Shown here: in pieces, positions 562-51,351 of the stretch
Layout of the letters: each line of letters opens with the position of its first letter
How positions within the stretch are numbered: position 1 is the first letter of the stretch
Assembly: GCA_913047795.1 (NCBI GenBank)
Contig: CAJWTS010000008.1
Location: forward strand, 16,634-80,633
From: an uncultured Verrucomicrobiota bacterium
Lineage (GTDB): Bacteria > Verrucomicrobiota > Kiritimatiellia > CAJWTS01
Direction: 5' to 3'
Length of the DNA stretch: 64,000 bases
Program-made: the position numbers and the translations under genes
Notes under the pieces: model-generated
What the model was told of the DNA's origin: nothing
Seen by the model: the letters and a program-made list of their open reading frames with translations, nothing else
Database searches by the model: none

Positions 562-1820
562 AACGACTCCGTGCTCGCGCGACGGTAACGATTCTCCTGC
601 TCTTCAAGAAAATCCCGCAATCGATCCAATCGTTCAATCGGCAGGTCATCGAACGTCCACCCGTCCGATGACCAAAGGTCGGTCATGTCCGCCGCCGCCG
701 GGTAGTGGGTCGCAAAATACTCCCGAAGAATGTCCTCGTCCCGTCGCCCGTCATCCGCGTGTGACGCCTTCAGGTACTGCAACGTTCGCAAACCGTCGAG
801 ACGTTCGTGACAGGCCCGCTTGAACCGCTCCGGCTTCGCGTGCGTGCGCCGGAGCGGAGACCACAGATCCGTCGTCTTGAGTTGCTGGCGGAGAAAGGCC
901 GTCACCGACGTTTCATGATCCCCCTGTTGAAGTTCGGGAAAGAGCTTGATCGTGTCACCCAGTTCATCGAATCGTCCGGCGGCATAGAGCGGATAGCGCG
1001 ACCAGTCGCCTTCGACTCCGCGCTGCATCGCCGGGCCGGTACCGAAGGGCACACGCGACGACAGGCGCGTACCGGGATAGGCCGTGTCCGCCAACCAGTG
1101 CAAGACCGGGCCATACTTCGTCAGCTTCTGCAGAAAGTAGAAATCTTCTCCGCTTTCCCTTGGATCGAGTCCGCCGACGGCGCGATAGGCCCGAACCGGG
1201 ACAGAGATAACCGACCCCATGGCCGTGAAAGCGTACGGCGATGCGATACGCCACAGGTTGAGCACATAATAACGCAGATAGATCTCGTAACGCAGCATCG
1301 CGCGATCGACATCCTCATCCCCGCACAACGGGTGTCGGTAAGGCGCCGCCACCCCGACCGCCTGCGGATGCTCCTCGAGCGTCGCGACAACGGATGCGAT
1401 GTATCGCGCTCCAAACGCCGTGTCGGCATCCATGCAAACGATCACATCGTTATCCTCGGCGTCCTCGCAAATGCGGTCCATCAATGTCTTGCGTGCCCAG
1501 CCCACGCCGCATCGCCCAGCGTCCCAGCCCTTTCCGCGACTGCATCGATCGATCACTTCCAATTCGATGGGCCAGTCGCGCCGCAAGTAATCCAATGTCT
1601 CCACGTTACGGCGGCAGATCGCGGCCTGGTCGCCATCGTCCCACCACGCCTCCGGCTGATTGACGCAGAACCAGGTCTTGAACCCAGGATAAGTCTGGCC
1701 AATAAGCGAACGCAGACATCCCGGCAACCAGTCCCGCTCGTCAAGAACCGGCACGGCAACGTGGACTCTCGGCTGGTCCTGTGCAGGAGATTCGGTCATA
1801 CTGAAAATTGCTCGTCGCAT
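558..1820 (-). CDS. Family 2 (GT-A fold) glycosyltransferase
   Basis: 420-aa ORF. The N-terminus has the GT2 pattern VAVPVLDERDWLPGCLRSLIGQTYP and a DxD-type motif (CMDADT). The start is 1820 or the ATG at 1799. Its stop overlaps the miaA start. Confidence 0.8.
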   Translation of the reverse strand: MRRAIFSMTESPAQDQPRVHVAVPVLDERDWLPGCLRSLIGQTYPGFKTWFCVNQPEAWWDDGDQAAICRRNVETLDYLRRDWPIELEVIDRCSRGKGWDAGRCGVGWARKTLMDRICEDAEDNDVIVCMDADTAFGARYIASVVATLEEHPQAVGVAAPYRHPLCGDEDVDRAMLRYEIYLRYYVLNLWRIASPYAFTAMGSVISVPVRAYRAVGGLDPRESGEDFYFLQKLTKYGPVLHWLADTAYPGTRLSSRVPFGTGPAMQRGVEGDWSRYPLYAAGRFDELGDTIKLFPELQQGDHETSVTAFLRQQLKTTDLWSPLRRTHAKPERFKRACHERLDGLRTLQYLKASHADDGRRDEDILREYFATHYPAAADMTDLWSSDGWTFDDLPIERLDRLRDFLEEQENRYRRASTESL

Positions 1821-1852
1821 CGCCTGAGCGCGCGCAATTCGGCTCTTTGATC

Positions 1853-26616: not shown

Positions 26617-28017
26617 ATGGCCAAACTCATAAGAATGCCCGACCTGGGAACGACCGTCGACAGTCTCGTTATCAACGCATGGTTGATCGAGCCCGGTCAG
26701 TCGGTCGAACTCGGGCAGCCGCTCGCGGAGATCGAGACCGACAAGGCCGTCAACGAACTCGAAAGCGTGGCAGCGGGCACCTTGCTCAAGATCGTCGCTG
26801 AGACCGGCGCCGAGGTGCAAACGGGCGACGTCATCGCCGTGATCGGAGAACCGGGCGAAGACATCGAAGCCGCGCTGCAGGGAGAGACAACCCCCGCCGT
26901 GCCGCCGAGCGCGCCAGTCCGTCGCGAACCTGCGCAGCCCGAACCCGTCGCGAGTCCGGCGCCGAGCGGAGAGCGCGTTATCGTCCAGGGCGTCAGACCG
27001 GAAAACGACGCGCCCGCAATCTATACCTACGCGCCCGATACGCAACCTGACTGTGCCGGCTACGAGACACCGTTCCTGCTTAACCTCTACCAGGAAATGC
27101 AGCGCATTCGGCGCTTCGAAGAACGCGTACGCCTGCTCTTCCTCGAGGGCATCATGCCGGGCACGATCCATCAATGTGACGGACAGGAGGCCTGCGCGGT
27201 CGGCGTCTGCGCAACGCTTCAGGACGGCGACGTGATCACCTCAACGCATCGTCCACACGGTCACGCCGTCGCGCGCGGACTACCGATAAAGGAGTTGATG
27301 TCCGAGCTGTTCGGTCGAGACGACGGTTGCTGCCGGGGCAAGGGCGGATCGATGCATTTCGGCGATTTGGCGCGCGGCATGGTTCCTGCCATCGCCACCG
27401 TGGGCAGCAATGTTCCGATCACCGCCGGCGTCGGCCTGGCTTTCAAACTGCGTGCCGAAGAGCGCGTGGCCGTCAGTTTCTTTGGCGATGGTGCAACAAA
27501 TGAAGGCGCCTTCCACGAAGGGCTTAACCTGGCGGCGGTATGGGGACTGCCCTGTATCTTCGTCTGCGAAAACAATTACTACGGGGCCTCGACACCCGTG
27601 CATCAATCGATGGCCGCCAAGGACATTGCCGATCGCGCGGCCGCCTACGGAATCGAGGGTAAAATCGTTGATGGCAATGATGTGCTGGCCGTCTACGAAG
27701 CCGTCGGCGCAGCCGTCGCCAACGCACGCGCGGGCGGTGGTCCGGCATTCCTGGAGCTCAAGACGTATCGACTCTGCGGGCATTCGCGCCGCGACGCGCG
27801 CGACTATCAACCGGACGAAGAGAAGGAATTCTGGCAGGGACGCGAACCGATCAGTCGACTGCGCCAGAGCATGCTCAACGCCGGGCTCGCCGAACAGGAC
27901 GCCTTCGATCAAGTTGACGCACAGGTCGAGGCCGAGCTCGACGCGGCGATCGAACATGCGCAGGCCGCACCCTTTCCCGACGGCGCCGACGCCCTGGAGC
28001 ACGTCTGGGCCCCATGA
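26617..28017 (+). CDS. 2-oxoacid dehydrogenase E1 alpha subunit (TPP-dependent) with an N-terminal lipoyl domain
   Basis: aa 1-80 form a lipoyl domain with IETDKAV (Lys43, nt 26743-26745). A Pro/Ala-rich linker follows. The E1 alpha core has GKGGSMH and the TPP motif GDGATNEGAFHEGLNLAAVWGLPCIFVCENN. Confidence 0.85.
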   Translation: MAKLIRMPDLGTTVDSLVINAWLIEPGQSVELGQPLAEIETDKAVNELESVAAGTLLKIVAETGAEVQTGDVIAVIGEPGEDIEAALQGETTPAVPPSAPVRREPAQPEPVASPAPSGERVIVQGVRPENDAPAIYTYAPDTQPDCAGYETPFLLNLYQEMQRIRRFEERVRLLFLEGIMPGTIHQCDGQEACAVGVCATLQDGDVITSTHRPHGHAVARGLPIKELMSELFGRDDGCCRGKGGSMHFGDLARGMVPAIATVGSNVPITAGVGLAFKLRAEERVAVSFFGDGATNEGAFHEGLNLAAVWGLPCIFVCENNYYGASTPVHQSMAAKDIADRAAAYGIEGKIVDGNDVLAVYEAVGAAVANARAGGGPAFLELKTYRLCGHSRRDARDYQPDEEKEFWQGREPISRLRQSMLNAGLAEQDAFDQVDAQVEAELDAAIEHAQAAPFPDGADALEHVWAP

Positions 28018-29033
28018 GCCGCCACCTGTCTATCGCCGAGTCCCTGCGCGAAGCCATCATCGAAGAGATGGAACGGGACGGGTCTGTCTTCTGCATGGGT
28101 GAGGACATTGGTATTCCCGGCGGTTGGGGCGGTGCCTTCACCGTGACGCTCGGCCTCGAAGAACGCTTTCGCAATCGCGTCATCGATACACCGATTTCGG
28201 AGAACGGATTCGTGGGAGCGGGTGTTGGCGCGGCGATGATGGGCCTGCGTCCCATTGTCGATCTTCAATACGCTGATTTCATCTTCTGTGCCATGGATCA
28301 GGTTGTGGGCAACGCCGCCAAGATGCGCTACATGTCCGGCGGAAAACTCAGTGTTCCGATGGTCCTGCGCGCCCCGGTCGGCATCACCGGACGTGGGGCA
28401 CAGCACGCGGGCAACCCGGAGTCGTACTTCATGGGCACGGCGGGTCTCAAGATCGTTACCGTCTCAACGGCTTACGACGCCAAGGGACTGCTCAAGTCCG
28501 CGGTTCGCGACAACAACCCGGTCCTGTTTTTTGAACATAAATTGCTATACGGGTCCAAAGGTGCCCGTGCGGAATCCGGGGCAGTGGATGGATCCAGCGA
28601 CGTCCCGGACGGCGAATATACGATCCCGATCGGCGAAGCCGCCCTACGACGCGAAGGTGGCGACGTCACGATCATCGGCTGGCTCTTGATGGCGCATTTC
28701 GCGGCGCAGGCCGGCGACTTGCTCGCCAAAGAGGGGATTGAGGCTGAGGTTATTGATCTGCGCAGCCTCGTGCCGATGGATTTTGACGCGATTGCCGCCT
28801 CGGTTAAGAAGACCGGGCGCCTCGTCATCGCCGAAGAGGGCCCCGCACGCGGCGGCATCGCCGCCGAGATCGCTGCGCGGTGCGCCGAAGAGCTGGCTGA
28901 TTATCTCGATGCACCGATCCGGCGCGTCGCCTCGCCCAATGTTCCCCCGCCCTTCTCACCACCGATGGAGGCCTTTTATCGGCCCGATGCGGCGCGCATT
29001 GCTGACGCAGCCAGGGAGAGCGTCGCGGGTTGA
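28014..29033 (+). CDS. 2-oxoacid dehydrogenase E1 beta subunit
   Basis: REAIIEEMERDGSVFCMGEDIG...GGAF..T.GL...FG..RVIDTPISENGF. 339 aa. ATGA overlap with the alpha subunit (28014-28017). Confidence 0.9.
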   Translation: MSRHLSIAESLREAIIEEMERDGSVFCMGEDIGIPGGWGGAFTVTLGLEERFRNRVIDTPISENGFVGAGVGAAMMGLRPIVDLQYADFIFCAMDQVVGNAAKMRYMSGGKLSVPMVLRAPVGITGRGAQHAGNPESYFMGTAGLKIVTVSTAYDAKGLLKSAVRDNNPVLFFEHKLLYGSKGARAESGAVDGSSDVPDGEYTIPIGEAALRREGGDVTIIGWLLMAHFAAQAGDLLAKEGIEAEVIDLRSLVPMDFDAIAASVKKTGRLVIAEEGPARGGIAAEIAARCAEELADYLDAPIRRVASPNVPPPFSPPMEAFYRPDAARIADAARESVAG

Positions 29034-31596: not shown

Positions 31597-33846
31597 CTAG
31601 CCTGGAGCAACCAAGACGTCGACGTCCTTCCGGCGCGATTCAGGGGAGACCTTCAATTCGACGAGTTTTCCCGCCTTCATGCTGCCTTCGACGACCGTCT
31701 TGTAAGGCGCGTGCATTTTGAACTCCACATCCCAGTCGCTGGGCCAGGCCGGAAACAGATAAATCTTGCGCCCGTCCGTCTGCATGAGCATCGCTTGAAG
31801 TGTCTTGAGCAGGACGCCCCCGTGACATTGATCCGGGGTCCAGTCGTAGTTGGGCCCCCAGAAGGCCGGGAAGCGCGAGTCCGCATTCTTGTTCCGCGCG
31901 CGGCCCACAACACTCTCGCGAACCTGTTCGCTGAGCCCAAGATAGGCCATGAAAATATCATCCTGTCGCCACCCGTGATTGCCTCTGTCCCATCGGTGCT
32001 TTAGCCCTTCGATTCCCAATTCCAAACCGGGCTTGCCGATCGCAACCTGTCGAAAAGGAAACACAGCGTAGAGTTCGGGGTTTTCACAGTTTCGCTTGTC
32101 GGAAAACTGCTCCGCGGGGGCCAGCATGGTCGTGCCGTCAACTTCTCGCGTGGGAAGGTCGGGCACCTTCTTCTTGAGGGCCGTCCAGAATGCTATCTGC
32201 TCGGCCGAAGGGAGTTCGCTTTCCAACGACAAGAGTCGATCCGTCACCGCATGTAAGCCGGCGACTTCGGGCATGGGATTCGTGCAATCCCACCACGTCT
32301 CCAGGGCCTGGGCTGGATGCATGATGAGCTTGCCGCCCGCGTCCGTCCCGTAGTGTTGATCATAGAACGTCAGGATATCGTGGGCCACCGGCAGCAGCAT
32401 GTCGCTCAAGAATGCCTCATCGAGCGTATGCTCATAATAGTCCAGCAACATGTAAACGAACTCCAGGCCCGCCACCCATTCCCATTTATGCCAGGGGCTG
32501 GCCTGGATCTTGTCGGATCGCTCCTCAAAAGGCGTCCACCCGTAGACTTCATTGAACATGTCTCCCCAGAAAAAGATACATTCCGGCACGTATACGCCGT
32601 CGTGATCCGTATGGCGACGGGTTCGATGCCGGAACAGGGGCATCAGATCTTCGCCATACATCTTGAACAGGGGCTGCATCAACTCAAAGTCTCCGGAACT
32701 GCACATGCTGGTGTAGGGAAGGCGCGTATTCTGCCACCAGTAGCCTGGCCCCCATCGCCGGTAATCCGCGTCGCCGGGTTCACCGGCGTGCGCCACGTTA
32801 AAGATCGAGCCGTTAAATTTGATGGGGTATTGCCCGCGTCCCGCGCAAGCATTCATGAAGCGCTGGAGCGCATACATGCGCGCGACCGTGGACGCATCGT
32901 CCTGATCCGCCGTGGTGTCCGTGACATGTATCCAACTCCGGTGCCAGAAATCGCTCCACCACTGCTCATGCGCGGCGCGGCGGCGATCGACAGGAATGCG
33001 CGTGCTGGCGGCAGTCGCCGTATCCACGGCTTCCAGCCACTGTTGCGGCGTACTCGCATGCTCGGTCAGCACGCAAATGCTGAACCGATGCGTCGACGAG
33101 CTGGGAGATCGAAGGTGCCGATCATCCAGTCGTTCTGCGTGCCCGACTGATATCACGGCACCGAATGTTCTATGCAGCAAAGGATCGCCTCGTTCGAAAT
33201 CCTCGACACCCTGCGTCTTCGCATGCGCTGTGGGCCCTACCGACTTAATGTTGTGGTGGTACCAGCCGATACGCCCGTTCAGACCGGACAAGACGGTATC
33301 GGGCTCCACAAGGGTGGGCCCTGGCGGAGGAGGGTCGTCGGGCGTGAAGACACATGGATGCAAGACGTCGCTGGTCTCAAGGCTCGGAAGCACGTAGGGT
33401 TCTTTCCGCCACAATTCGATCGAAGCCGTGGCTTGAATCTCGGTCGCGCTCTCGATATCGACGTGAATTTCAGGATGATTGGCGTCGACCCAGAGACGCA
33501 GCCTGGTCTCCGTGGCACCCTCGCCAACTTGTATGTTTATCGTCCCGTCGAGGAGTGACAGGGCCTGACTGAAAGCCGTGGCCGCACCAGGCGGAACAGG
33601 GTCCATCTGGATTCGAATCTTACCCACCTTGAGCAAGCGGCCGTTGTCACCCCAGCTATCCGTCCTGGAAACGTAAAAAACAAGGTCACCACTATCTTCG
33701 ATCCATGCGTTGAGCCCAATCTCGCCATTTCCCAGCGGCATTGAACCGCTGTGATCCCTGCCCGGGCTGTCCCATACAACGCTATACGTGTCCATCGTGT
33801 TCCCCAACCTGTCGCATGCGCCCGCTTGATTCGTGATCGAAAGCAT
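31597..33846 (-). CDS. GH95-like / DUF5703-type putative glycoside hydrolase
   Basis: 749 aa. The N-terminal SMPLGNGEIGLNAW...VSRTDSWGDNGRLLKVG resembles the PLGNGxLG N-domain of GH95-like proteins. An alternative start is ATG 33795. Confidence 0.55.
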   Translation of the reverse strand: MLSITNQAGACDRLGNTMDTYSVVWDSPGRDHSGSMPLGNGEIGLNAWIEDSGDLVFYVSRTDSWGDNGRLLKVGKIRIQMDPVPPGAATAFSQALSLLDGTINIQVGEGATETRLRLWVDANHPEIHVDIESATEIQATASIELWRKEPYVLPSLETSDVLHPCVFTPDDPPPPGPTLVEPDTVLSGLNGRIGWYHHNIKSVGPTAHAKTQGVEDFERGDPLLHRTFGAVISVGHAERLDDRHLRSPSSSTHRFSICVLTEHASTPQQWLEAVDTATAASTRIPVDRRRAAHEQWWSDFWHRSWIHVTDTTADQDDASTVARMYALQRFMNACAGRGQYPIKFNGSIFNVAHAGEPGDADYRRWGPGYWWQNTRLPYTSMCSSGDFELMQPLFKMYGEDLMPLFRHRTRRHTDHDGVYVPECIFFWGDMFNEVYGWTPFEERSDKIQASPWHKWEWVAGLEFVYMLLDYYEHTLDEAFLSDMLLPVAHDILTFYDQHYGTDAGGKLIMHPAQALETWWDCTNPMPEVAGLHAVTDRLLSLESELPSAEQIAFWTALKKKVPDLPTREVDGTTMLAPAEQFSDKRNCENPELYAVFPFRQVAIGKPGLELGIEGLKHRWDRGNHGWRQDDIFMAYLGLSEQVRESVVGRARNKNADSRFPAFWGPNYDWTPDQCHGGVLLKTLQAMLMQTDGRKIYLFPAWPSDWDVEFKMHAPYKTVVEGSMKAGKLVELKVSPESRRKDVDVLVAPG

Positions 33847-33977
33847 GTGGCCGCACTGACATCACAAGTTGACGCATCTGGCGACGCAAAGTAGCCTTAA
33901 TCTTTCCCATGGGAGCCCGCTTGAACCATCATTCTCATCCTGTCAGATCTTGACGTGAGCCGGGACTCATTACCAAC

Positions 33978-36260
33978 ATGAGCGTCGACTATCACCTCTA
34001 TTCGATAAAGCGAAGCGACTACGCTGTCAACGAAGAGAACAGGGCCAGGGCGATTCAACGTGGCCTGGTCTCGGCACCGTGGTACACGCCCCCTGTTGAA
34101 CGGGAGGTCATGCGCGAATTGCTGATTCGCCGTGATGGTCCGGCCATCCGGGACACGCTCATCTGGTTTGGCTTGCTGATCGCATCGGGCATCTGCGGCT
34201 TTCTCCTATGGGGCACATGGTGGGCCATCATTCCATTTGCCGTTTATGGCGTCGTCTACGGCACGTCGTCGGATTCCCGCTGGCACGAATGCCTTCATGG
34301 TTCAGCCTTTAAGACGGACTGGATGAACAACGTTCTCTATGAAATCGCTTCATTCATGGTGGTGCGGGAGGCGACCCCCTGGCGCTGGAGTCATATGCGC
34401 CACCATAGCGATACGATCGTTGCCGGCAGCGATCCGGAAATCCTGCCCCGCCCGCCCGACATCAAGGGTCTTCTACAACAATTCGTCATCTGGCCCAGTG
34501 CGAAGGCGGAATTCCGGAAAATGTTCCTGCACGCGTCAGGAAGACTCACGGAAGCCGAAAAGATTTACGTGCCGAAAAACTCCTACCCGCGTGTGTTTCT
34601 AACATCGCGCATCTATCTGCTCATCTACGGAACCACGATTGCCCTCGCGCTGGCAACGCGCAGCTGGCTTCCACTCATGTACATCGGCTTGCCCAGTTTC
34701 TACGGTGCGTGGCTGATGCCGTTTTACGGATACACCCAGCATTTGGGTTTGGCGGAGAACGTCCTGGATCACCGACTCAATACCCGCTCCGTGAACATGT
34801 GCCTGGTCAATCGTTACCTCTACTGGAACATGAACTATCACCTGGAGCACCATATGTTTCCCCTGGTGCCGTACCATGCCCTGCCCAAGCTCCAGCAGCT
34901 GCTCAAGAATGACATCCCCAAACCGCATCCAAGCATCTACGCGGCCTTCAAGGATATCGTTCCCGCCATCTTGCGACAGGCGAAAGAGCCCACCTACTGC
35001 ATCACCCCGGACATCCCGAAGTCGGCGTTGGATTCCGCACAGGACGTTTCAACTGTGACACTGGTGTCGAACCAGGCGCCCGATGCCGAGGGATGGCTGG
35101 AGGTTGGTGACGCGGATCAACTGGACCGGGAAGACGTGCTTCGCTTTGACCATGATACCAGCACCTACGCCATCTACCGTACGGATGATGATGCCTACTA
35201 TGCGTCCGATGGTCTTTGCACGCATGGCCACACGCATCTGGCGACGGGCCTGGTCAGGGGGCAGCAGATCGAATGTCCCAAGCACAATGGCCGCTTTGAT
35301 GTCACAACCGGCGAACCCGCCCGCCCGCCGGTGTGCGTCGCCCTGAAGACTTACCCGGTGCGCATTGAAAACGGCACGTTATTCATGCAGGTGGGCGCCA
35401 ATGGAGATAACGATTCTACAGGCCGGATGCCCGCCCGGAATTTTCGCGTGGTCAGCAACGATAACGTGGCGACCTTCATCAAGGAACTGGTCCTTGAGCC
35501 ACTGGACACGCGTACGCCTTTTCAGTATCAGCCCGGTGAATACGTTCAACTCGACATACCGCCCTATGAAATGGCCTTTCCCGAGATCAACGTCAACGAT
35601 CCCTACAAGGCGATCTGGGATCGTAATGAACTATTTAAATGCAGGGCGTCGAATCTCGCACCCACACGTCGAAATTTCTCCATGGCGAGCAACCCGGCCA
35701 CGGAAGACCTGGTCCGTTTCAACGTTCGCATCTCCACACCCCCGCTGGGAGTCGACTGCAGTGCGGGCGTTGGGTCGTCGTATCTCTTTCGCTTGAAGGC
35801 AGGCGACGAGGTCACCGCCATCGGCCCCTTTGGCGATTTTTACCCGCAAGAGACCGAGAGAGAGATGATCTACCTGGGCGGCGGCGCGGGCATGGCACCC
35901 TTGAGATCGCATATCTCGCATTTGTTCGACACCCTGAAGACCACTCGCAAGGTGAGCTACTGGTACGGTGCCCGATCGCTACAGGAGATTTTCTATCAAG
36001 ACTATTTCGAAGCCCTGGACCAGCAACATCCACATTTTACTTTCAAAGCCGCACTCTCGGAACCTCTCGAGGAAGATCACTGGACGGGCGACGTGGGACT
36101 TATTCACGAAGTCATGCGAACCCAGTACCTTGCCCGGCATCCTGATCCGACGCAGATCGAGTACTACCTTTGCGGTCCGCCCCAGATGGTGCAAGCGGCC
36201 AGGCAATTGCTAAGTGAACTGAACGTACCGGAAGACCAGATCGCGTTTGATGAGTTTTAA
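33978..36260 (+). CDS. Tri-domain fusion: membrane fatty-acid desaturase + Rieske [2Fe-2S] + NqrF-like FAD/NAD(P)H reductase
   Basis: His boxes HECLH (aa 103-107), WRWSHMRHHSDT and HLEHHMFP. Rieske motif CTHGH-x16-CPKH (nt 35217-35285). Reductase motifs RRNFSMAS and GGGAGMAP, with a YYLCGPPQM...AFDEF C-terminus. Confidence 0.85.
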   Translation: MSVDYHLYSIKRSDYAVNEENRARAIQRGLVSAPWYTPPVEREVMRELLIRRDGPAIRDTLIWFGLLIASGICGFLLWGTWWAIIPFAVYGVVYGTSSDSRWHECLHGSAFKTDWMNNVLYEIASFMVVREATPWRWSHMRHHSDTIVAGSDPEILPRPPDIKGLLQQFVIWPSAKAEFRKMFLHASGRLTEAEKIYVPKNSYPRVFLTSRIYLLIYGTTIALALATRSWLPLMYIGLPSFYGAWLMPFYGYTQHLGLAENVLDHRLNTRSVNMCLVNRYLYWNMNYHLEHHMFPLVPYHALPKLQQLLKNDIPKPHPSIYAAFKDIVPAILRQAKEPTYCITPDIPKSALDSAQDVSTVTLVSNQAPDAEGWLEVGDADQLDREDVLRFDHDTSTYAIYRTDDDAYYASDGLCTHGHTHLATGLVRGQQIECPKHNGRFDVTTGEPARPPVCVALKTYPVRIENGTLFMQVGANGDNDSTGRMPARNFRVVSNDNVATFIKELVLEPLDTRTPFQYQPGEYVQLDIPPYEMAFPEINVNDPYKAIWDRNELFKCRASNLAPTRRNFSMASNPATEDLVRFNVRISTPPLGVDCSAGVGSSYLFRLKAGDEVTAIGPFGDFYPQETEREMIYLGGGAGMAPLRSHISHLFDTLKTTRKVSYWYGARSLQEIFYQDYFEALDQQHPHFTFKAALSEPLEEDHWTGDVGLIHEVMRTQYLARHPDPTQIEYYLCGPPQMVQAARQLLSELNVPEDQIAFDEF

Positions 36261-37377: not shown

Positions 37378-38220
37378 TTGCAAGCAACACAACTCACGGA
37401 CGAGCAGTTAGCATTCTTCGATACGTTCGGGTATCTCTCCTTTCCCGGACTGCTCGCGGATTGCGTCGAGAGGATCATCAGCGAGTTCGAAGCCGTCTGG
37501 GCCGCCCAGGGCGGTGGTCACCACGGCGCGTCCCATGATGGCGAACAGCGTTCCTGTATCGTGCCCTTCCCCGATCAGAGCAAATATCTCAGCGCCCTGC
37601 TCGACGACCCGCGCATCCATGACATTGCCGCCGCCATCTGCGGCGACGATTTCAACTACACCAGCGGCGACGGCAACTTCTATGCCGGCGACACCAACTG
37701 GCACTCCGACGGTTGGGGTGCCGATCGGGTCCCGAGCATAAAGATCGCCTACTATCTCGATCCCCTGACGCGCGACAGCGGGTCATTACGCGTCATACCC
37801 GGCAGCCATCGCTGCGGCGAGACCTTTGCCGATGCCGTGCACCGCGAGATCAGGGAGAGTGGAACAGCCTGGGGCCTGACCGGCCGCGACGTCCCAGCCA
37901 CGGCACTGGAGACCGTGCCCGGCGACATCGTCGCCTTCAACCACAACCTGAAGCACGCCGCGTTCGGAGGCACCGCGCGGCGGCGCATGTTCACGATGAA
38001 CTTTTCGCGCCGCTACCCGGAGGACCGGCTCGACGAGTTGCGGCATGACCTCGGCCAGGAGGCGCGCTTCTGGATTGACCGCATTCACGGAGACGCCATG
38101 ATCCGCACCGCCGGACCGGAGCGCATGGTCCACCTCGAACAGGTGATGGCCAACGACACGCACCTGGCCGATCTGACGCGTGAACTCAAGAAGACGATGA
38201 AAGAACCGGCGCGCGGTTGA
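37378..38220 (+). CDS. Phytanoyl-CoA dioxygenase (PhyH) family Fe(II)/2-oxoglutarate oxygenase
   Basis: LTDEQLAFFDTFGYLSFPGLL N-terminus. WHSDG (HxD) and a distal His in NHNLKHAAFGG. TTG start. Confidence 0.75.
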   Translation: MQATQLTDEQLAFFDTFGYLSFPGLLADCVERIISEFEAVWAAQGGGHHGASHDGEQRSCIVPFPDQSKYLSALLDDPRIHDIAAAICGDDFNYTSGDGNFYAGDTNWHSDGWGADRVPSIKIAYYLDPLTRDSGSLRVIPGSHRCGETFADAVHREIRESGTAWGLTGRDVPATALETVPGDIVAFNHNLKHAAFGGTARRRMFTMNFSRRYPEDRLDELRHDLGQEARFWIDRIHGDAMIRTAGPERMVHLEQVMANDTHLADLTRELKKTMKEPARG

Positions 38221-38232
38221 CGCCGATAGCCG

Positions 38233-39027
38233 TCAGCCTGCCGACCGCCGCCGGGGCACATTCGGGAATACGATTTCGCGGCGCGCAGGCGTCAAGCGCG
38301 ACATCAGTTCGTCCGACGGCTCATATCCGAAGCGGTGACGGTAGATTTCGGGTACATATCGAAAAATGACCATGCGGCGTTCGCCGGAATTCGTGCGCTC
38401 GGACGCTCCGTGGCACAGCGCGTCGTTGATCACCAGGGCATCGCCGGCCTTCAAGTGAACTTCCATCGCTTCGTCGACGAGCTGCCCCGCCCCATCCGAG
38501 ATGCCGCCGCTTGCATCCTGCTGCGGATGCGGGAGATGGGACTTGTGGCTACCGGGAACCACCACCGTTGCACCATCGCCCGGCCCGACGTCGGTCAGGG
38601 CGACCATCAGCGATAACATGCAGCAACACCACCCACCCCGGTCGTGGCCGGCACGGACGCGCGAATCGACAACATGCCCCCCGGAGTGGACTCCGATGTA
38701 CCCACCCGCCTCGCGAATATTCAGAAATCCTTCATTAAGGAATGGCCTCTGGCCGCTGCCAAGGAAATGCCGTACCCGCCCAATCCATGCCGGATGGTCA
38801 ATCAGCCGCTCAAAGATTTCCCCGCCTTCAATGATATCCTGCAGGTTTGTTCCGTCCTTCACCCCATAGGTATGGACGTAGGTCCGGTCGTGCCACGCAC
38901 CGGATTCCAGTTTCGGTAGCGCGTCGATACAATCGTTGATCGCGCGCACATGCTCCGCATCGATCGCCTGCTCAACAATCGTGTAGCCACGCAGGTCGAA
39001 TAAATACTCTTCCGTCGGCGACGGCAT
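38233..39027 (-). CDS. Phytanoyl-CoA dioxygenase (PhyH) family oxygenase
   Basis: YLFDLRGYTIVEQAI...; GVHSGGH...; VVPGSHKS. 264 aa. Confidence 0.75.
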   Translation of the reverse strand: MPSPTEEYLFDLRGYTIVEQAIDAEHVRAINDCIDALPKLESGAWHDRTYVHTYGVKDGTNLQDIIEGGEIFERLIDHPAWIGRVRHFLGSGQRPFLNEGFLNIREAGGYIGVHSGGHVVDSRVRAGHDRGGWCCCMLSLMVALTDVGPGDGATVVVPGSHKSHLPHPQQDASGGISDGAGQLVDEAMEVHLKAGDALVINDALCHGASERTNSGERRMVIFRYVPEIYRHRFGYEPSDELMSRLTPARREIVFPNVPRRRSAG

Positions 39028-39273
39028 GGCTCACTCCCCGGATGAATCAGGATCCACGATTCTCGTACGCATCGGCTGAAGATGCCGAACGGAGCACAGG
39101 AAGGCAAGTAGAACACAGCGCGATACAATGGAGAAGCTTCGGGGACGCCGAACACCTCAGATCGAATACGGCCGGTGCCTGGTCCGGGTCGGCGGGCCCC
39201 GCGGACAGGACCGCGCCTCGACTCCGTCTCTGCGCTTGCCATCCCTGAGTGCGGGCCCCATATTCAGCAAACC

Positions 39274-40035
39274 ATGCGAAAAAGCAAAACCCTCGCGCGC
39301 GTTCGTGACGGAAACGTCGTTCGAGCCTGCGTACTCGGCCACTACATACCCGCCTACGTCGCCCATGCGGCCCGCGCTGGATATGACTGCATCTGGTTGG
39401 ACCTGGAACACCGCGCCATGCCGATCAGGGAAATCCAGGCACTGCTCGCCTACGCGCACCTCTATGATATCGACATCATGCTGCGTCCGCCGACCCTCGA
39501 TAAGACCGGACTCTACCGCTACCTTGAGGAAGGGGCCGCCGGTCTGCTGATTCCCCAGGTGTGCAACGTGGAGAAGGCCAGGATGCTCGTGGACGCGGTC
39601 AAATTCCCACCAATCGGCGACCGCGGCATCGACAACGCGGGACTCGATGCCGACTTCTATCTTCATGATGACGATGAATATGTGGCCTGGGCCAACCGGG
39701 AAACCTTTCTCTGCGTCCAGATCGAATCACCTGAAGGCGTACACAACGCCGAGGCGATCGCCGCCGTAGAAGGCGTCGATATGCTTTTCGTCGGGCCCGG
39801 CGATCTCGGACTGCGCCTGCGGCAAAGCGGTGAGATGACGCTGGACGACGCATGGGAGATCGTGGCCTCCGCCTGCCACAAGCATAAAAAGGCCTTCGGA
39901 GGCCCGGCGATGCCCCTCGAAGAAATGACAAAACGCCGCGCGCTGGGCGCACAGTTGCTCGTTAACATTGGCGAATTTCATAGCTTTGCGGTTGGGCTGC
40001 AGGAGCATATTCGGGATTTCGATGAACTTGATTGA
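39274..40035 (+). CDS. HpcH/HpaI family (class II, pyruvate-specific) aldolase
   Basis: GYDCIWLDLEHRAM...VKFPPIGDRG...LCVQIESPEGV.NAEAIAAVEGVDMLFVGPGDL. ATG 39274; the track start 39175 is an upstream extension. Confidence 0.8.
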   Translation: MRKSKTLARVRDGNVVRACVLGHYIPAYVAHAARAGYDCIWLDLEHRAMPIREIQALLAYAHLYDIDIMLRPPTLDKTGLYRYLEEGAAGLLIPQVCNVEKARMLVDAVKFPPIGDRGIDNAGLDADFYLHDDDEYVAWANRETFLCVQIESPEGVHNAEAIAAVEGVDMLFVGPGDLGLRLRQSGEMTLDDAWEIVASACHKHKKAFGGPAMPLEEMTKRRALGAQLLVNIGEFHSFAVGLQEHIRDFDELD

Positions 40036-42796: not shown

Positions 42797-42858
42797 GAAC
42801 GATATTGAACGTTCGCGAGCCCATACGTAGACTCGAATCTCAAGATGATGACCCCACG

Positions 42859-43647
42859 ATGAACCGCCTCAAAAAATTGCTCGGCGACGGATCGGTCGCC
42901 GTCGGCGTACAACTGCGCTTCGGCTCGCCCGCGATCGCTGAATTGGCGGGCAAGGCAGGGTTCGACTGGATCTTGCTCGATACCGAACACGCGCCGCAGA
43001 CACCGCCCGGGGTCCAGGCGCAGTTACAGGCCATCGGCAACTCGCAGGCAACTCCCATCGTGCGGCTCGGAAAGAATGACCCCGCCTTGATCCGACTCTA
43101 TCTGGACATGGGTGCCGCAGGCATCGCTGTGCCCTTTATCAGTACAGCTGAAGAAGCCAAGATCGGGGCCGACGCCAGTCGGTATCCGCCGCGCGGCACA
43201 CGTGGCTGGGGTCCGCACCGGGCGGCGACCTACGGCCTCGAGGAAGAAGCGTACACGACCCATGCCAATGACGACGTCATGTATATACCGATCATAGAAA
43301 CGAAACAGGCCGTCGAGAATATCGAGGCCATCATGGCCGTCGACGGCGTGGATGCCTGCATCGTGGGGCCATTCGACCTGAGTTTTTCGCTGGGCATCCC
43401 GAAGCAGTTCGAGCATACCGACTACCTGGCAGCCGTCGAACGTATACGTGAAGCGGCGGTAAGCGCCGGCAAATCCACGAGCCTCAGCCTGCGGGGTGCG
43501 TTCGATAATCGGCAGGGCCCGACACACCATGCTGATCCCGGCGCGCAGTTACTGCTTTGCGGAGGTGACGAACCTTTCCTTGGACAAGCCTTTCGCGAGT
43601 CGGTAAGGCGATACGCCCACCTGAAACACAAGGGAGGTCAAACGTGA
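42859..43647 (+). CDS. HpcH/HpaI family aldolase (second copy)
   Basis: GFDWILLDTEHAPQ...YPPRGTRGWGP...IPIIETKQAVENIEAIMAVDGVDACIVGPFDL. ATG 42859. Confidence 0.8.
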   Translation: MNRLKKLLGDGSVAVGVQLRFGSPAIAELAGKAGFDWILLDTEHAPQTPPGVQAQLQAIGNSQATPIVRLGKNDPALIRLYLDMGAAGIAVPFISTAEEAKIGADASRYPPRGTRGWGPHRAATYGLEEEAYTTHANDDVMYIPIIETKQAVENIEAIMAVDGVDACIVGPFDLSFSLGIPKQFEHTDYLAAVERIREAAVSAGKSTSLSLRGAFDNRQGPTHHADPGAQLLLCGGDEPFLGQAFRESVRRYAHLKHKGGQT

Positions 43648-45300: not shown

Positions 45301-46110
45301 ATGACCACACCAACACATCCGATCCATCTGACCGACGAAGACGTGACGTTCTTCGACCGGGAAGGCTATTTCATCTATCATCATCAACTCTTCGCTCAAG
45401 AGCAGCTCAAACGGCTGCAGGCTTTTTTTGATCAGATGCTGGCCGATCTGCCCGAGGGCGCGCGCCCCGAGAGCATGGACACCCCGCACTTTGCCTTTCC
45501 GGCGCTGTTCGAGTGGCTGCTCGCTGACGAAGTCTTGGATTTCGTCGAGCGGTTTATCGGTTCGGACATTCTCTTGTGGTCGAGTCATTTTTTATGCAAG
45601 CCGCCCGGCGTCGGCCTGGCCGTGCCATGGCATGAAGACTCCTCCTACTGGGGCGACGCGCTCAGCGAGCACAAGGTCGTAACCGTGTGGGTGGGTGTCG
45701 ACGACTCGCAACCGGAAAACGGATGCATGCGCGTCATACCCGGATCCCATTCAAACGGTTTCTCGGAATACGAAGACGTCGACCGCAGCACGAATGTTTT
45801 TCCCACGCGCATCAAACCCGGCGAGATGGACGAGTCCGCGGCCGTCGATCTGGCGATCATGGCCGGCGAGTGTCACGTCCATCACGCCAAGATGATCCAC
45901 GGGTCGAACCCGAATACGAGTGACAGACGCCGCTGCGGCTACACGATGCGCTACATGCCGGCCGACGTGAAACATAACGTCGACGAACAGGGCGGCCAGC
46001 ACGCGGTCTACCTTGCACGTGGTGAGAATCTCGCTGGAAACGAACTGGGTGATCCGACAAAACTTTTCGAACCCGGCCAGGACCGATGGCGCGGCGGCGC
46101 AGGGCACTAA
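45301..46110 (+). CDS. Phytanoyl-CoA dioxygenase (PhyH) family oxygenase (third copy)
   Basis: LTDEDVTFFDREGYFIY, VPWHEDSSYW (HxD), RVIPGSH and HHAKMIHGS. 269 aa. Confidence 0.8.
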   Translation: MTTPTHPIHLTDEDVTFFDREGYFIYHHQLFAQEQLKRLQAFFDQMLADLPEGARPESMDTPHFAFPALFEWLLADEVLDFVERFIGSDILLWSSHFLCKPPGVGLAVPWHEDSSYWGDALSEHKVVTVWVGVDDSQPENGCMRVIPGSHSNGFSEYEDVDRSTNVFPTRIKPGEMDESAAVDLAIMAGECHVHHAKMIHGSNPNTSDRRRCGYTMRYMPADVKHNVDEQGGQHAVYLARGENLAGNELGDPTKLFEPGQDRWRGGAGH

Positions 46111-46907: not shown

Positions 46908-49628
46908 CTACAGTGCCTCTATCCGAATGGGGCAAACCTTGAGCTCCGCCGTTTCAGTCACCGGGTCATACCCCGACCCCGTCAGCAGGTTGATCGGCGT
47001 GTCTCCGAAACTGAAACTGCAGAAGACCGTGCCGCGCGGGGACTGCTCGGTTGCCTCGACCTTGATCTTGATCGATCCGCGCGCGCTCGAAATCCGGCAA
47101 CTCTCGCCATCCACCAGACCCCAGGCATCGACGTCGGCGGGATGGACCTCAAGTGTCTCTTCAGACAGCAGGTAGTCGATACCCGACGAACGGCCGGTCT
47201 GCGTGCGCGTGTGATAGGACTCCAGGCGGCGCCCCGTGGTCAACCAAACAGGAAAATCGTCATCGATAACCTCTGCCGGGTCGCGGTAACCGATCACCTT
47301 GAAGAGGCCGCGCCCGTTCTTGAATTCCTTTTGATGCAGGATGGGCGTTCCCGGATGATCCTTTTCGGGCACCGGCCACGCATACTCGCCCCGGTCGATG
47401 CGATCCCAGTCGAGCCCGGCATAAATTGGCGAGACGCTACAGAGTTCGTTAAAGACTTCTTTCGCCGACTCGAACTCAAAACCCGGAATGCCCATGCGCT
47501 GCGCGATCTGGGAGACGATCCACCAGTCCGGTCGCGCCTCACCTGCCGGTGAAACCGCCGCGCGCAAACGCTGCACCCGTCGTTCGGTGTTGGTGCATAC
47601 GCCATCGGTTTCCGCCCAACCCGTGGCCGGCAGCACCACGTCCGCCAACTCGCCGGTCTCCGTTAGAAAGATGTCGATGACAACCAGGTGCTCCAGGCTC
47701 CGAAGCGCGTGTTCGCAGTGCTTGCGATCCGGATCTGAAACCACCGTGTTCTCGCCGTCGATCAGCATGGCGTGAATCGACTCTCCGCAACGGTTCAGGG
47801 CGGTCACTTTCGTAACGCCTTTTTCGGCGTCGATTTCGCGTCCGTAAAGCCGTGAAAACTTCTCGGCATTGGCGGGGGCGCTGCAAAGCTGGAAACCGGG
47901 AAAATTGGATGGCACAGCACCGCAATCACCCGCCCCCTGGATATTGTTCTGTCCGCGCATCGGGTTCACACCGGTGCCTTCGCGGCCGATGTTGCCGGTC
48001 ATCAGGGCCAGGTTACAAAGGCTCTGCACGTTATCGACGCCGCAGATATGCTCCGTGATTCCAAGCGTGTAATAGATCGCACCCATGCCGGCACTGCCAA
48101 ACCAGATCGCCGCTTTCTCGATATCCGCGGCAGGCACACCCGTGATGCCTTCCGCCCACTCCGGCGGAAACGCCTGCACGTGTTCCAGAAACGCCTCACC
48201 GTCCGCGGTCCGCGTATCCATAAAACCCTGATCCACGAGACCTTCGCGGGCGATCACGTGCGCCATGCCGAGCAGGAGCGCCACGTCCGATCCGACACGG
48301 ATCGGAAGGTAGAGATCCGCCAAATGTGCCAGGGGTATCTTGCGCGGATCGGCCACGATCATGCGCGAACCACGCGCGAGCGCCTTCTTGAGTTCGGTCG
48401 CAGCGACCGGATGGCACTCCGTCATGTTGGTTCCGATGCAGAAAATGACATCCGGCTTCGACATGTCGACAAGCGGGTTCGACATGGCTCCGCGGCCAAT
48501 CGTGGCGGCCAGACCGGCCACCGTCGGTGCGTGTCAAGCACGGCTGCAGTTGTCGATGTAGTTGGTACCTGTTCCGGCCCGAACAAATTTTTGCATCGTG
48601 TAGGCCGCCTCGTGTGGAGCGCGTCCCGATGCGACCCCGTAAAGGCTGTACCGCCCGTGCTTCTCCAGGGCCTTGCTGAACCCGCCGGCCGCACGATCGA
48701 GAGCCTCGTCCCAACTTGCCGCGTGCAAATTTCCGTCTTCACCCCGCAGGAGCGGCGTCTTCAATCGTTCCTCGTGCTGAACAAAATCAAAAGCGAACTG
48801 ACCCTTCACGCACAACGCGCCCTTGTTCGCCGGCCCGTCCATGGCGGGCTGCACCCCCACCAGTCGATCGCCCTTGGTCAGCAGGTCGACGGAACAGCCC
48901 ACGCCGCAGTAGGGACAGATCGTGCGCGTCTTCTTTAGTTCCGCCTTATCCTCTTCGGCACGCATCGCCTTGCGATCGCCCAGGGCACCGGTCGGACAGG
49001 TCTGCACGCATTGGCCGCAGAACGTGCACGCCGATTCTTTCAGACGTCCATTAAACTCGGTGGTGATCTGGGTCTCGAAGCCACGATTCATGATATTGAT
49101 CGCGTGATCGCCTTCCTGCTCGGCACAGACCCGCACGCAACGGTAGCAGGAGATACAGAGATCGTAGTCGCGCAGGATAAAGGGATTGTCATCGTCGGTA
49201 TTGGACGTACCGGACTGGGCACCCTTGAACCGGCCGGCCTGGGCATCGTATTCCTCAACCAGGGTCTTCAGTTCCTGGGACGCATAGCCACGCAGGGGAT
49301 CGACGTCGACCTCGCGGTTCTCGGATACGACCATCTCCAGCAACGTCTTGCGGTGGGCGTCCAGTGCTTCATTGCGCGTGCGGACGACCATGCCCGGCTC
49401 CGCCCGCGTGGTACAAGACGCGACAGGGTTGCGGCTGCCTTCGAGTTCGACCACGCACATGCGGCAGCCGCCGAAGGCTTCGAGCCGGTCGTCGTAACAG
49501 AGTGTGGGAATCTTCGCGCCATGGCGCCGCGCCACCTGGAAAATCGTTTCGCCGTCGTGAAACTCGACCGCGTCGCCGTCGATGGTGACCGTACCGGCGA
49601 CGACCATATCTCTGAGTTGATCGTGCAT
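46908..49628 (-). CDS. fdhA: Selenocysteine-containing formate dehydrogenase alpha subunit (NuoG-like N-terminus plus molybdopterin domain); in-frame TGA = Sec365
   Basis: Track ORFs 48534-49628 and 46908-48521 are in the same frame, joined by TGA at 48536-48534. The read-through gives NYIDNCSRA-U-HAPTVAGLAATIGRGAMSN, matching the E. coli FdhF Sec context (CARV-U-HGPSVAGL...GNGAMSN). The N-terminus has 2Fe-2S and 4Fe-4S Cys motifs (CISCYRCVRVC, CTFCGQCVQTCP, CPYCGVGC). Confidence 0.9.
48504..48522 (-). promoter_or_regulatory. Bacterial SECIS-like hairpin, 11 nt downstream of the UGA
   Basis: The mRNA reads UGA CAC GCA CCG AC-GGUGGCC-GGUCU-GGCCGCC. It forms a 7-bp stem (one G-U pair) with apical loop GGUCU, the same GGUCU(G) element as the E. 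coli fdhF SECIS apex. Confidence 0.7.
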
Positions 49629-49680: not shown

Positions 49681-51351
49681 TCAAGAACCGAAGTGTTTTT
49701 CAACCTGATCCGGGAAATACTTGAGCAGGCTGTCCGTCACCAGCGGCGCCGCCATTCCGAGGCCGCAGGCGCTGGTCGCGCGCATGGTGCGGCCCATGTC
49801 TTCCACCTCGGCCCTCCAGTCTGCGAGACTCTCACATCCGCCGTTGCCACGTAGCCGCTCCGCGATCCGGTGCGTTCCGATCCGGCACGGGAAACACTTG
49901 CCACAGGACTCGTGCGCAAAGAAAGCCATGGCATCCGCCGCAACCTCGACCATGTTGCGGCTGTCGTCGAACACGATAATCCCGCCCGCGCCGAGAAACG
50001 ACCCCTTGGAGCGAACGCTGGGTTCGTCGAGCGTAACGTCCATGTCCTCGCCGGCCAGAAACCCGCCGGAAAGGCCCGCCATTGTAACGGCCTGAATCGT
50101 GCGCCCCTGCAACGCGCCGCCGGCCCAGTCGTGCAGAAGTGTTTTGAGTGGAAAGCCGATCGGCACCTCGTAGTTGCCGGGGCGCTGCACATCCCCGGAC
50201 AGGCAGATGAGTTTGGTGCCCGCGTGATCCTCGCAACCGAGCCCGCGATACCAGTCCGCGCCGTTACAAACGATAGGACCGACGGAGGCCAGAGTCTCGA
50301 CATTGTTGACCGCGGTCGGCTTCTGATCGTAACCATGCGTCACGGGGTATGGAGGACGGTTGCGCGGAAAGGGGTGTTTTCCTTCGAGGCTGTTCAGCAA
50401 CGATCCCTCTTCTCCGCAGATGTAGGCGCCCGCGCCACGACGCAAATAGATGTCGAAAGCTATTCCGGATCGAAGAATGTCCTCGCCGAGAAAGCCGGCC
50501 GCGCGGGCCTCGACAATGGCCTGCTCAAGTCGTTCAAACGTTTCCGGGTACTCGTAGCGAAGATAGACGAAGCCCTGCTGCGCGCCGCAAGCGTAGGCGG
50601 CAATGATCATGCCTTCGAGCAAGGCGTGTGGATCGTGATCCATGATCGCGCGATCCTTGAAACAACCCGGCTCGCCTTCGTCCGCGTTGCAGACGATTGT
50701 TTTCGGATGTCCCTCGGCCTCGGCAACGGCCGACCACTTGGCGCCCGTCGGAAACCCGGCACCGCCGCGTCCGGCCAACCCGCTGTCACCGACCAACTTG
50801 AGCGTCTGTTCAGGCGTCATTTCCCCCATGACCCGCAGGAGCCCCTCGTAACCGCCGGTACGCCGATACCCTTCCAGCGACGCACGGTCAGGTTCGCGGA
50901 TCGCCGCAAAAACACATTCCTCGAGTCCGCCCGGATTGGCAACCGGCAGGGGACTCACGCGCCGCTCGAGCACGTCGACCGTTGCGCCGACCCAGACCTG
51001 ATCGCCCCGCAAGACGGGAATCGGCTCATCGCATCGTCCCGCGCAGGGCATCGCGGTTGCGCCATCCGACTGCATGCTTTCGAGCAGTTCGCAGGCACCA
51101 CGCAACCGGCAAACGTTGCCGGTACAGACGCGCGCGGCGTCGCGACCGCCCGGGGTTCGGGCGAAATGATGATAAAACGTAACCGTGCCGAACAATTCCG
51201 CCAAAGGAATACGCAGTCCCTCGGAAACGGCACGCAGTGCGTCATCGGAAAGATAGCCGTCGCGATCGTGGAACGCGTGCAAAACCGGCAACAGTGGGGC
51301 CGGCTCGTCTCGCCACGTGGCAACAAGATCTTGATTGGCAGTTATCGTCAT
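49681..51351 (-). CDS. NAD-reducing formate dehydrogenase diaphorase subunit (NuoE-like plus NuoF-like fusion; FdsB/HoxF type)
   Basis: The N-terminal NuoE-like 2Fe-2S motif is CTGNVCRLRG...CAGRCDE. The NuoF core has GRGGAGFPTGAKW, an FMN/NAD site, and the 4Fe-4S motif ESCGKCFPCRIG. 556 aa. Confidence 0.9.
   Translation of the reverse strand: MTITANQDLVATWRDEPAPLLPVLHAFHDRDGYLSDDALRAVSEGLRIPLAELFGTVTFYHHFARTPGGRDAARVCTGNVCRLRGACELLESMQSDGATAMPCAGRCDEPIPVLRGDQVWVGATVDVLERRVSPLPVANPGGLEECVFAAIREPDRASLEGYRRTGGYEGLLRVMGEMTPEQTLKLVGDSGLAGRGGAGFPTGAKWSAVAEAEGHPKTIVCNADEGEPGCFKDRAIMDHDPHALLEGMIIAAYACGAQQGFVYLRYEYPETFERLEQAIVEARAAGFLGEDILRSGIAFDIYLRRGAGAYICGEEGSLLNSLEGKHPFPRNRPPYPVTHGYDQKPTAVNNVETLASVGPIVCNGADWYRGLGCEDHAGTKLICLSGDVQRPGNYEVPIGFPLKTLLHDWAGGALQGRTIQAVTMAGLSGGFLAGEDMDVTLDEPSVRSKGSFLGAGGIIVFDDSRNMVEVAADAMAFFAHESCGKCFPCRIGTHRIAERLRGNGGCESLADWRAEVEDMGRTMRATSACGLGMAAPLVTDSLLKYFPDQVEKHFGS

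Follow-up and report, generated by a model that had tools for sequence, protein, structure and literature searches.

The 64,000-nucleotide (nt) stretch of DNA analysed here (the window), from contig CAJWTS010000008.1 of an uncultured Verrucomicrobiota bacterium, contains a stop-free open reading frame (ORF; 33978..36260, + strand) that encodes a single polypeptide of 760 amino acids (aa) with three redox modules: an N-terminal membrane di-iron oxygenase, a Rieske [2Fe-2S] domain, and a C-terminal reductase of the type that works with flavin adenine dinucleotide (FAD) and reduced nicotinamide adenine dinucleotide (NADH). A gene for a glycoside hydrolase of family GH139 lies divergently upstream and a gene for a PanB-like protein follows downstream (Table 1). 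An earlier description made from the letters alone, hereafter the sequence-only reading, had proposed this uninterrupted three-module ORF and had quoted a set of motifs in support. The Pfam and NCBIfam profiles agree with the three modules, and each quoted motif is found in the translation at the position given for it. With all three modules in one chain, the protein is predicted to be self-sufficient, as had been expected.

The borders drawn by Pfam fit this division, with FA_desaturase at aa 80-319, Rieske at aa 373-460 (E=1e-14), FAD_binding_6 at aa 563-622 (a weak match), and NAD_binding_1 at aa 633-742 (E=2e-16). The N-terminal domain belongs to the membrane fatty acid desaturase/hydroxylase superfamily (PF00487), as indicated by the profile match (E=6e-34), by three His boxes, and by hydrophobic hairpins at about aa 57-96, before His boxes 1 and 2, and at about aa 200-250, before box 3, a layout that is the usual desaturase topology. 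From what we know of this fold, the His boxes and all of the sequence past aa 320 presumably lie in the cytoplasm, where NADH is available. The Rieske ligands, C414-x-H416 and C433-x-x-H436, are encoded at nt 35217-35285, and the MocE-family Rieske model of NCBIfam (TIGR02377) matches this internal domain at aa 373-472 with 133.8 bits, just below its cut-off of 136.15. On the reductase side, the motifs RRNFSMAS, GGGAGMAP (aa 634-641), and YYLCGPPQM are present, as is a C-terminal AFDEF; the NCBIfam nqrF model (TIGR01941) covers aa 490-760 with 317.6 bits, above its 295-bit cut-off, through model positions 133-403 only. Histidines 103, 107, 139, 142, 143, 185, 255, 265, 288, 291, and 292 are invariant among 121 homologues, and in an alignment of 22 sequences all metal ligands are invariant and the linkers are variable but never broken.

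The fusion is genuine. All of the best 120 database matches have the same three domains within 751-795 aa; two of them are closer relatives (99% and 79% identity), and the others are 57-63% identical. At least 598 species genomes encode a full-length relative in a scan of one genome per species, and the carriers among the matches listed are Verrucomicrobiota, Acidobacteriota, Chloroflexota, Bacteroidota, Planctomycetota, and a few Proteobacteria. Rubellicoccus peritrichatus, Winogradskyella sediminis DSM 28134, and Saccharicrinis are among the carriers that have been cultured. Because the three-domain form is conserved across many genomes, the linkers are unbroken, and the composition is even along the whole gene, an assembly chimera or a hidden frameshift at the domain junctions, a concern raised by the sequence-only reading, is excluded. 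That reading had also left room for the architecture being both common and already characterised: common it is, but a search of the full-text literature, with most subscription journals outside its scope, found no paper on the fused architecture and no biochemical characterisation of it.

Related forms comprise stand-alone oxygenases of ~350-400 aa and two-domain oxygenase-Rieske proteins of ~465-500 aa, many of them on contigs >100 kb. At 50% identity, a single full-length representative stands for the whole three-domain form, so that a library clustered at this level gives no family count, whereas the two-domain form makes up several clusters that reach down to 32% identity. On this comparison of sequences, the three-domain form is probably a compact, younger branch that has spread horizontally. 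As a separate observation, the proteins P0437, P0450, P0458, P0466, P0467, and P0508 (556-846 aa) carry a C-terminal NqrF-like module behind 280-570 aa of unidentified N-terminal sequence, and are possibly further self-sufficient fusions.

Many database entries name the three-domain protein NqrF, after subunit F of the Na+-translocating NADH:quinone reductase, and the score above the nqrF cut-off is in keeping with this name. The match is nevertheless restricted to the model positions given above, and a 470-aa oxygenase and Rieske region replaces the N-terminal membrane helix and the plant-type [2Fe-2S] domain of NqrF. The gene is flanked by those for the GH139 and PanB-like proteins, and the window ORFs scanned gave no match to any Nqr subunit family. 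Since these parts of NqrF are missing, and with no nqrABCDEF operon around it, the assignment of the whole protein to NqrF is refuted, and we regard its chance of being correct as negligible. The narrower claim that the reductase is NqrF-like is well founded: the module (271 aa) carries the same FAD and NADH motifs as NqrF and is 48.3% identical to the solved NqrF FAD domain (PDB 7qty_A). It comes without the membrane helix and the plant-type cluster of NqrF and without nqrA-E, and its proposed acceptor is the Rieske domain.

The other two modules lead to a different system. The oxygenase domain is 48% identical to a MocD-like protein encoded on pSymB of Sinorhizobium meliloti (E=2e-113, over 340 aa), and the MocE-like ferredoxin encoded next to that protein shares 58% identity with the Rieske domain (E=4e-42). 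A tblastn search of plasmids with the oxygenase domain returned 406 records at 47-53% identity over ~95% of the domain length, from Rhizobium, Sinorhizobium, Ralstonia, Burkholderia, Acidiphilium, and other hosts. In these records, the MocD-type gene is followed by genes for a "MocE family 2Fe-2S ferredoxin" and an "FAD-dependent oxidoreductase," and stand-alone genes are labelled "hydrocarbon oxygenase." SM_b20818-20 of S. meliloti 1021 are named mocD, mocE, and mocF and adjoin a LacI regulator (PMC11387232); passages of PMC10107442 and PMC5132102 that cite Bahar et al. (1998) describe mocDEF as a "ferredoxin oxygenase complex" of rhizopine catabolism. The reductase of the split systems, MocF, is a flavoprotein of the glutathione-reductase type (Pyr_redox_2 plus Reductase_C), in place of which the window protein has a fused module of the ferredoxin-NADP-reductase (FNR)/NqrF type. 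Rieske ferredoxins are usually reduced by glutathione-reductase-type flavoproteins or via an intervening plant-type cluster, and direct FNR-to-Rieske wiring is, to our knowledge, unusual. Given an oxygenase orthologous to MocD, a Rieske carrier orthologous to MocE with invariant ligands, and an NqrF-like module, the protein is, as judged by homology, a MocD and a MocE joined to a swapped, non-orthologous reductase derived from NqrF.

Because both modules are orthologous to MocD and MocE, a Rieske centre that feeds a desaturase-fold di-iron enzyme is the known design of the split MocDEF system and is less unprecedented than implied by the sequence-only reading, whose author knew of no characterised Rieske shuttle between an NqrF-type flavin domain and a desaturase di-iron site. 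Its larger point, an NqrF-type flavin domain, a Rieske centre, and a di-iron site in one chain, survives in part: the Rieske-to-di-iron step is known, but the fusion itself and the reductase swap are new, as are the phyletic spread and the carbohydrate and one-carbon (C1) contexts, all of them undescribed in the literature searched. Oxygenase and ferredoxin are separate proteins in MocDEF and fused here, and the window oxygenase, unlike MocDEF, has no mocA/B/C/R context. The hosts differ too among the matches listed, split mocDEF being found in Proteobacteria and the fused gene mainly in the other phyla named above. The mocDEF-like operons of rhizobia, Ralstonia, and Acidiphilium nevertheless resemble the fused loci in having a PanB-like or TIM-barrel partner downstream and sugar-type regulators nearby.

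These comparisons bear directly on whether the protein could act on lipids, either as a self-sufficient desaturase of acyl lipids or fatty acids or as a hydroxylase. The FA_desaturase match with its three His boxes, a weak NCBIfam match to the Delta10 desaturase DesB, and a lipid A acyltransferase gene ~3 kb upstream would all fit such an enzyme, and the His boxes had been read as closest to the acyl-lipid Delta12/omega type. However, the His-box pattern is common to the whole desaturase superfamily, the best desaturase model, DesB, reaches 29.9 bits against a 500-bit cut-off, and the closest homologues are the MocD-type proteins at 47-53% identity. Moreover, instead of lipid genes, the 80 loci described below have sugar transporters, mutarotase, regulators of the AraC/LacI types, and enzymes of C1 metabolism as neighbours. 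With the profile below threshold and a carbohydrate and C1 context, neither the Delta12/omega type nor another lipid desaturase is an assignment that we can retain, and we consider action on lipids very improbable.

By analogy with MocDEF, we propose that the protein is probably an NADH-driven membrane O-demethylase of a methylated sugar, belonging to the MocD family. The route of the electrons, the O-demethylation reaction, and the substrate are all inferred, and we picture a self-sufficient monooxygenase that would face the cytoplasm from the membrane. NADH would reduce the FAD of the C-terminal NqrF-derived module, and the flavin would hand electrons one at a time to the MocE-type Rieske [2Fe-2S] cluster within the same chain, from which they would reach the His-ligated di-iron site in the N-terminal four-helix membrane domain. 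There, O2 would be activated and, as supposed for MocDEF, would serve to hydroxylate a methyl-ether methyl group of a small carbohydrate that the cell has taken up; collapse of the hemiacetal would then yield the free sugar and formaldehyde. The PanB-like partner in the apparent operon could handle the C1 or hydroxymethyl unit or carry out an aldol-type step that follows. In 1998, Bahar and colleagues reportedly proposed that mocDEF demethylates the rhizopine 3-O-methyl-scyllo-inosamine.

Structure prediction is compatible with the Rieske-to-oxygenase part of this path. An AlphaFold2 model of aa 1-480 built with 121 homologues (mean predicted local distance difference test score, pLDDT, 87.8; predicted template modelling score, pTM, 0.81) suggests that the Rieske domain docks on the oxygenase in a fixed position. 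In a Foldseek search, the Rieske part of the structure matched Rieske ferredoxins of dioxygenases with template modelling (TM) scores of 0.82-0.93. For the membrane part, Foldseek found remote matches only, to plastid desaturase-like chains and to FtAlkB (TM ~0.4-0.5, 13-19% identity), and a sequence search of the PDB returned no relative of the oxygenase domain. Of the solved folds that match the N-terminal domain, the nearest one from a bacterial oxygenase, although remote (TM 0.42-0.50, 19% identity), is that of FtAlkB, a natural fusion of AlkB with the rubredoxin AlkG (PDB 8sbb). AlkB with AlkG and the window protein share the fold class, a membrane di-iron site, and a dedicated iron-sulfur donor; AlkB, in contrast to the window protein with its Rieske carrier, relies on a rubredoxin, acts on a hydrophobic substrate, and has no fused reductase.

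The family context, drawn from 80 genome loci of fused genes (L001-L080) whose ORFs were clustered, is one of sugars. The commonest unit consists of an AraC regulator (13 and 9 loci), an aldose 1-epimerase (17 loci), the fused oxygenase, and a ~294-aa protein that is encoded directly downstream in 28 of the 80 loci (e.g., 12253-13137 in L043). Sugar porters of the major facilitator superfamily occur in 11 loci, aldo-keto reductases in 9, and RhaT-like transporters in 7. Neither Pfam nor NCBIfam profiles match the ~294-aa partner, which shares 26% identity with a xylose-isomerase-like "TIM barrel protein" (weak AP_endonuc_2) that follows split mocDEF on Acidiphilium pACMV1. Enzymes of C1 metabolism recur as well: a gene for glutathione-independent formaldehyde dehydrogenase (TIGR02819, 713 bits) is found in L068 at 17 nt downstream, in L051 next to the operon and convergent, and in two more loci within 10 kb. 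The oxygenase operons of L013 (4682-13122), L066 (65-5294), and L067 (5856-17660) include MtaA/CmuA-like proteins of the uroporphyrinogen decarboxylase (URO-D) family and B12-binding corrinoid proteins, with RACo activators in two of these sets, and such corrinoid sets beside the oxygenase suggest oxic and anoxic demethylation routes for one substrate. URO-D genes also come directly after the TIM barrel gene in L070, L075, and L078. Of the relatives, L083 (79% identical) repeats the arrangement of GH139, oxygenase, and PanB-like genes together with a pectate-lyase-like gene, and in L084 (63% identical) the oxygenase lies among beta-helix and glycosidase genes. The context therefore points to carbohydrate catabolism with C1 release and not to lipid desaturation.

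In the window, the oxygenase and PanB-like genes are probably co-transcribed, and no + strand terminator was found in the 117-nt gap between them. The PanB-like protein, labelled PanB by homology, scores 107 and 83 bits with the PanB models, whose cut-offs are 272 and 207. Compared with E. coli PanB, a ~21-aa segment with the GDS motif (D45, S46) is deleted, D84 is replaced by His, and K112 and E114 are not conserved, whereas equivalents of H136 and E181 are kept; from PDB 1M3U, we take D45, S46, D84, K112, E114, and E181 to be the Mg2+ and substrate residues of the E. coli enzyme. Because the GDS segment and the equivalents of D84, K112, and E114 are missing, and with scores below the cut-offs, we reject a canonical ketopantoate hydroxymethyltransferase. 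A search of plasmids turned up the PanB-like gene in 275 records. In all five whose gene positions were compared (R. johnstonii, S. meliloti, M. huakuii, A. tumefaciens, and S. sojae), it directly follows mocD-mocE-mocF, and the window protein is 41-46% identical to these copies. The partner is conserved with both the split mocDEF-like and the fused oxygenases (window, L083), and it seems to form a separate subfamily, so far without a name, that goes with oxygenases of the MocD type.

This tight conservation lends weight to another chemistry, in which the enzyme would hydroxylate a C-H bond of a sugar-derived molecule, at either a C-methyl group or a ring carbon; the PanB-like protein would then remove the hydroxymethyl group by retro-aldol cleavage or transfer, or the TIM-barrel partner would process the oxidised sugar. 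PanB chemistry is a reversible hydroxymethyl transfer to a 2-oxo acid, the TIM-barrel partner is present in 28 of the 80 loci, and the membrane di-iron fold hydroxylates unactivated C-H bonds, AlkB being the nearest bacterial oxygenase fold found. On the other hand, the PanB-like protein lacks the canonical metal-binding residues, the formaldehyde dehydrogenase and corrinoid methyltransferase neighbours fit the removal of a methyl ether more simply, and the sole genetically studied relative, as the papers citing that work present it, demethylates an O-methyl cyclitol. We thus consider C-H hydroxylation with a PanB-like second step unlikely, although it ranks first among the alternatives, ahead of lipid desaturation and, last, NqrF.

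For the O-demethylase that we favour, a candidate sugar is offered by the divergent gene. The GH139 neighbour matches PDB 9hmb (E=5e-134) and 9hyq (E=2e-105), which are GH139 2-O-methyl-L-fucosidases (J Biol Chem 2025, PMC12282258). It is homologous to BT0984 and retains the proposed catalytic and recognition residues Q411, N412, E561, E641, and D723, which supports its placement in GH139, and it has Cys in place of N729; in BT0984, E561 is the acid and N729 is part of a proposed proton relay (PMC12282258). The catalytic acid present in the window protein is absent from the crystallised Verrucomicrobium homologue. Because the apparent operon faces a 2-O-methyl-fucosidase homologue, 2-O-methyl-L-fucose is a candidate substrate, if a weakly supported one, and we agree with the sequence-only reading that the sequence by itself reveals neither substrate nor regiochemistry. 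Between the two genes lies TTGACG-17 nt-TAGCCT, an element conserved in L083 that may be the oxygenase promoter; a consensus promoter scan did not list it.

Several observations weigh against the O-demethylase proposal or against its extension to 2-O-methyl-L-fucose. In 80 independent metagenome loci with GH139 (52-67% identity, 952 kb), the fused gene, a Rieske gene, and a PanB-like gene are all absent, and just one locus, a 5-kb contig (L098), has a MocD-type gene. There, a stand-alone MocD-type gene (358-1398) lies 53 nt upstream of, and co-directional with, the GH139 gene (1451-3745), and its 346-aa product is 29% identical to the window domain and has the same His boxes. Conversely, none of the 80 other fused-gene loci contains GH139, and the pairing of the two genes is confined to the window and its 79%-identical relative L083. 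Apart from this single MocD-type neighbour, the 80 GH139 loci speak against a general GH139-oxygenase link, and these cross-tests make the substrate assignment a lead drawn from two independent adjacencies and not from a repeated association. Many GH139 carriers are likely anaerobes, in which an oxygenase is unexpected. The lack of the E. coli PanB Mg2+ residues makes a C1 role for the PanB-like protein speculative, and URO-D-like proteins that have no corrinoid partner may have a function that is not methyl transfer. The full-length AlphaFold2 model, built from the 22-sequence alignment, is poor (pLDDT 65.9, pTM 0.48, oxygenase often <50), and we rejected it for geometry. Finally, the function of MocDEF itself rests on genetics, and the fused family has no assayed member.

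Methylated sugars are thought to slow the degradation of plant and algal glycans by microbes, and just one sugar demethylase has been characterised, a P450 specific for 6-O-methyl-galactose (PMC6292453). This enzyme of marine Bacteroidota works with a ferredoxin and a ferredoxin reductase, depends on O2 and NAD(P)H, releases formaldehyde, and is tied to polysaccharide degradation and formaldehyde detoxification (PMC6292453, PMC9400963). We propose it as a functional analogue of the window protein, to which it has no homology, being a soluble haem enzyme with separate redox partners. More tentatively, and with less confidence than we have in O-demethylation as such, we suggest that the three-domain proteins might constitute a widespread, unrecognised class of self-sufficient membrane di-iron O-demethylases, which would act, by an aerobic route without P450, on the methyl ethers of plant and algal sugars in polysaccharide degraders of soil, freshwater, and the sea and release formaldehyde. 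The window protein would then act on 2-O-methyl-L-fucose derived from rhamnogalacturonan-II-like glycans, a fixed second step would fall to the PanB-like or TIM-barrel protein, and some genomes would encode alongside it a cobalamin-dependent demethylase for anoxia.

If true, this would fill a gap in the carbon cycle with a single-polypeptide, NADH-driven oxygenase present in hundreds of genomes of carbohydrate-degrading phyla, and it would give a testable handle on how aerobes remove methyl ethers from sugars. The systematic misannotation of the three-domain family as NqrF would be corrected. The protein would also offer a compact catalyst for the selective demethylation or hydroxylation of polar molecules, and, as a natural example of the predicted direct wiring from FAD to Rieske to di-iron site, it would open the chemistry of MocDEF, which is poorly understood, to experiment.

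Table 1. Positions of the fused oxygenase gene, its modules, and other features in the window
Feature	Position	Strand	Remarks
Whole ORF	33978..36260	+	MocD-type di-iron oxygenase, MocE-type Rieske, and NqrF-type FAD/NADH reductase fused; 760 aa
Membrane di-iron oxygenase domain, aa 1-360	33978..35057	+	Pfam FA_desaturase aa 80-319, E=6e-34
His box 1, HECLH, aa 103-107	34284..34298	+	H103, E104, H107 invariant in homologue alignments
His box 2, HMRHH, aa 139-143, within WRWSHMRHHSDT	34392..34406	+	Invariant in homologue alignments
His box 3, HLEHH, aa 288-292	34839..34853	+	Invariant in homologue alignments
MocE-family Rieske [2Fe-2S] domain, aa 373-472	35094..35393	+	Ligands C414, H416, C433, H436
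FNR-type FAD/NADH module derived from NqrF, aa 490-760	35445..36257	+	nqrF model positions 133-403
PanB-like gene, 267 aa	36378..37181	+	117 nt 3' of oxygenase, probably co-transcribed
GH139-family glycoside hydrolase (2-O-methyl-L-fucosidase family)	31597..33846	-	Divergent from oxygenase; DUF5703_N/GH95-like
Promoter-like element TTGACG-17 nt-TAGCCT	33869..33897	+	GH139/oxygenase intergenic; conserved in L083; candidate
PhyH-family Fe(II)/2-oxoglutarate dioxygenases, three	37378-38220; 38233-39027; 45301-46110	+; -; +	Within 10 kb of oxygenase
HpcH/HpaI aldolases, two	39175-40035; 42805-43647		Interleaved with PhyH genes
Formate dehydrogenase alpha subunit	46908-49628	-	Fer2_4, Fe4S4, and molybdopterin domains; ~10.6 kb downstream
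NuoF-like subunit, flavin mononucleotide (FMN)/Fe-S	49681-51351	-	Adjoins formate dehydrogenase alpha
2-Oxoacid dehydrogenase E1 alpha-type	26617-28017	+	N-terminal lipoyl (Biotin_lipoyl) fused to E1_dh
E1 beta-type gene	28014-29033		After E1 alpha-type
Long ORF, 693 aa	40715-42796	+	No Pfam match; overlaps end of xylose-isomerase-like gene
Long ORF, 651 aa	17885-19840	-	No Pfam match

Among the other genes of the window, the formate dehydrogenase ORF is split by an in-frame TGA (48534-48536) inside NCSRA*HAPTVAGL, the classic position of selenocysteine. Because of this TGA and the adjoining NuoF-like subunit, the genes probably encode an NAD-linked, selenocysteine-containing formate dehydrogenase, which could oxidise C1 units released nearby. 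The overlap of the 693-aa ORF with the xylose-isomerase-like gene makes its true start uncertain. Scanning the window for tRNAs and Rfam families gave no match. The genes typical of carbohydrate catabolism comprise, besides those for the PhyH-type dioxygenases and HpcH/HpaI aldolases, genes for xylose-isomerase-like TIM barrels, short-chain dehydrogenases/reductases, GFO/IDH/MocA proteins, a D-lyxose isomerase, GHL6, GH38, GH2, and GH3 proteins, and a sulfatase.

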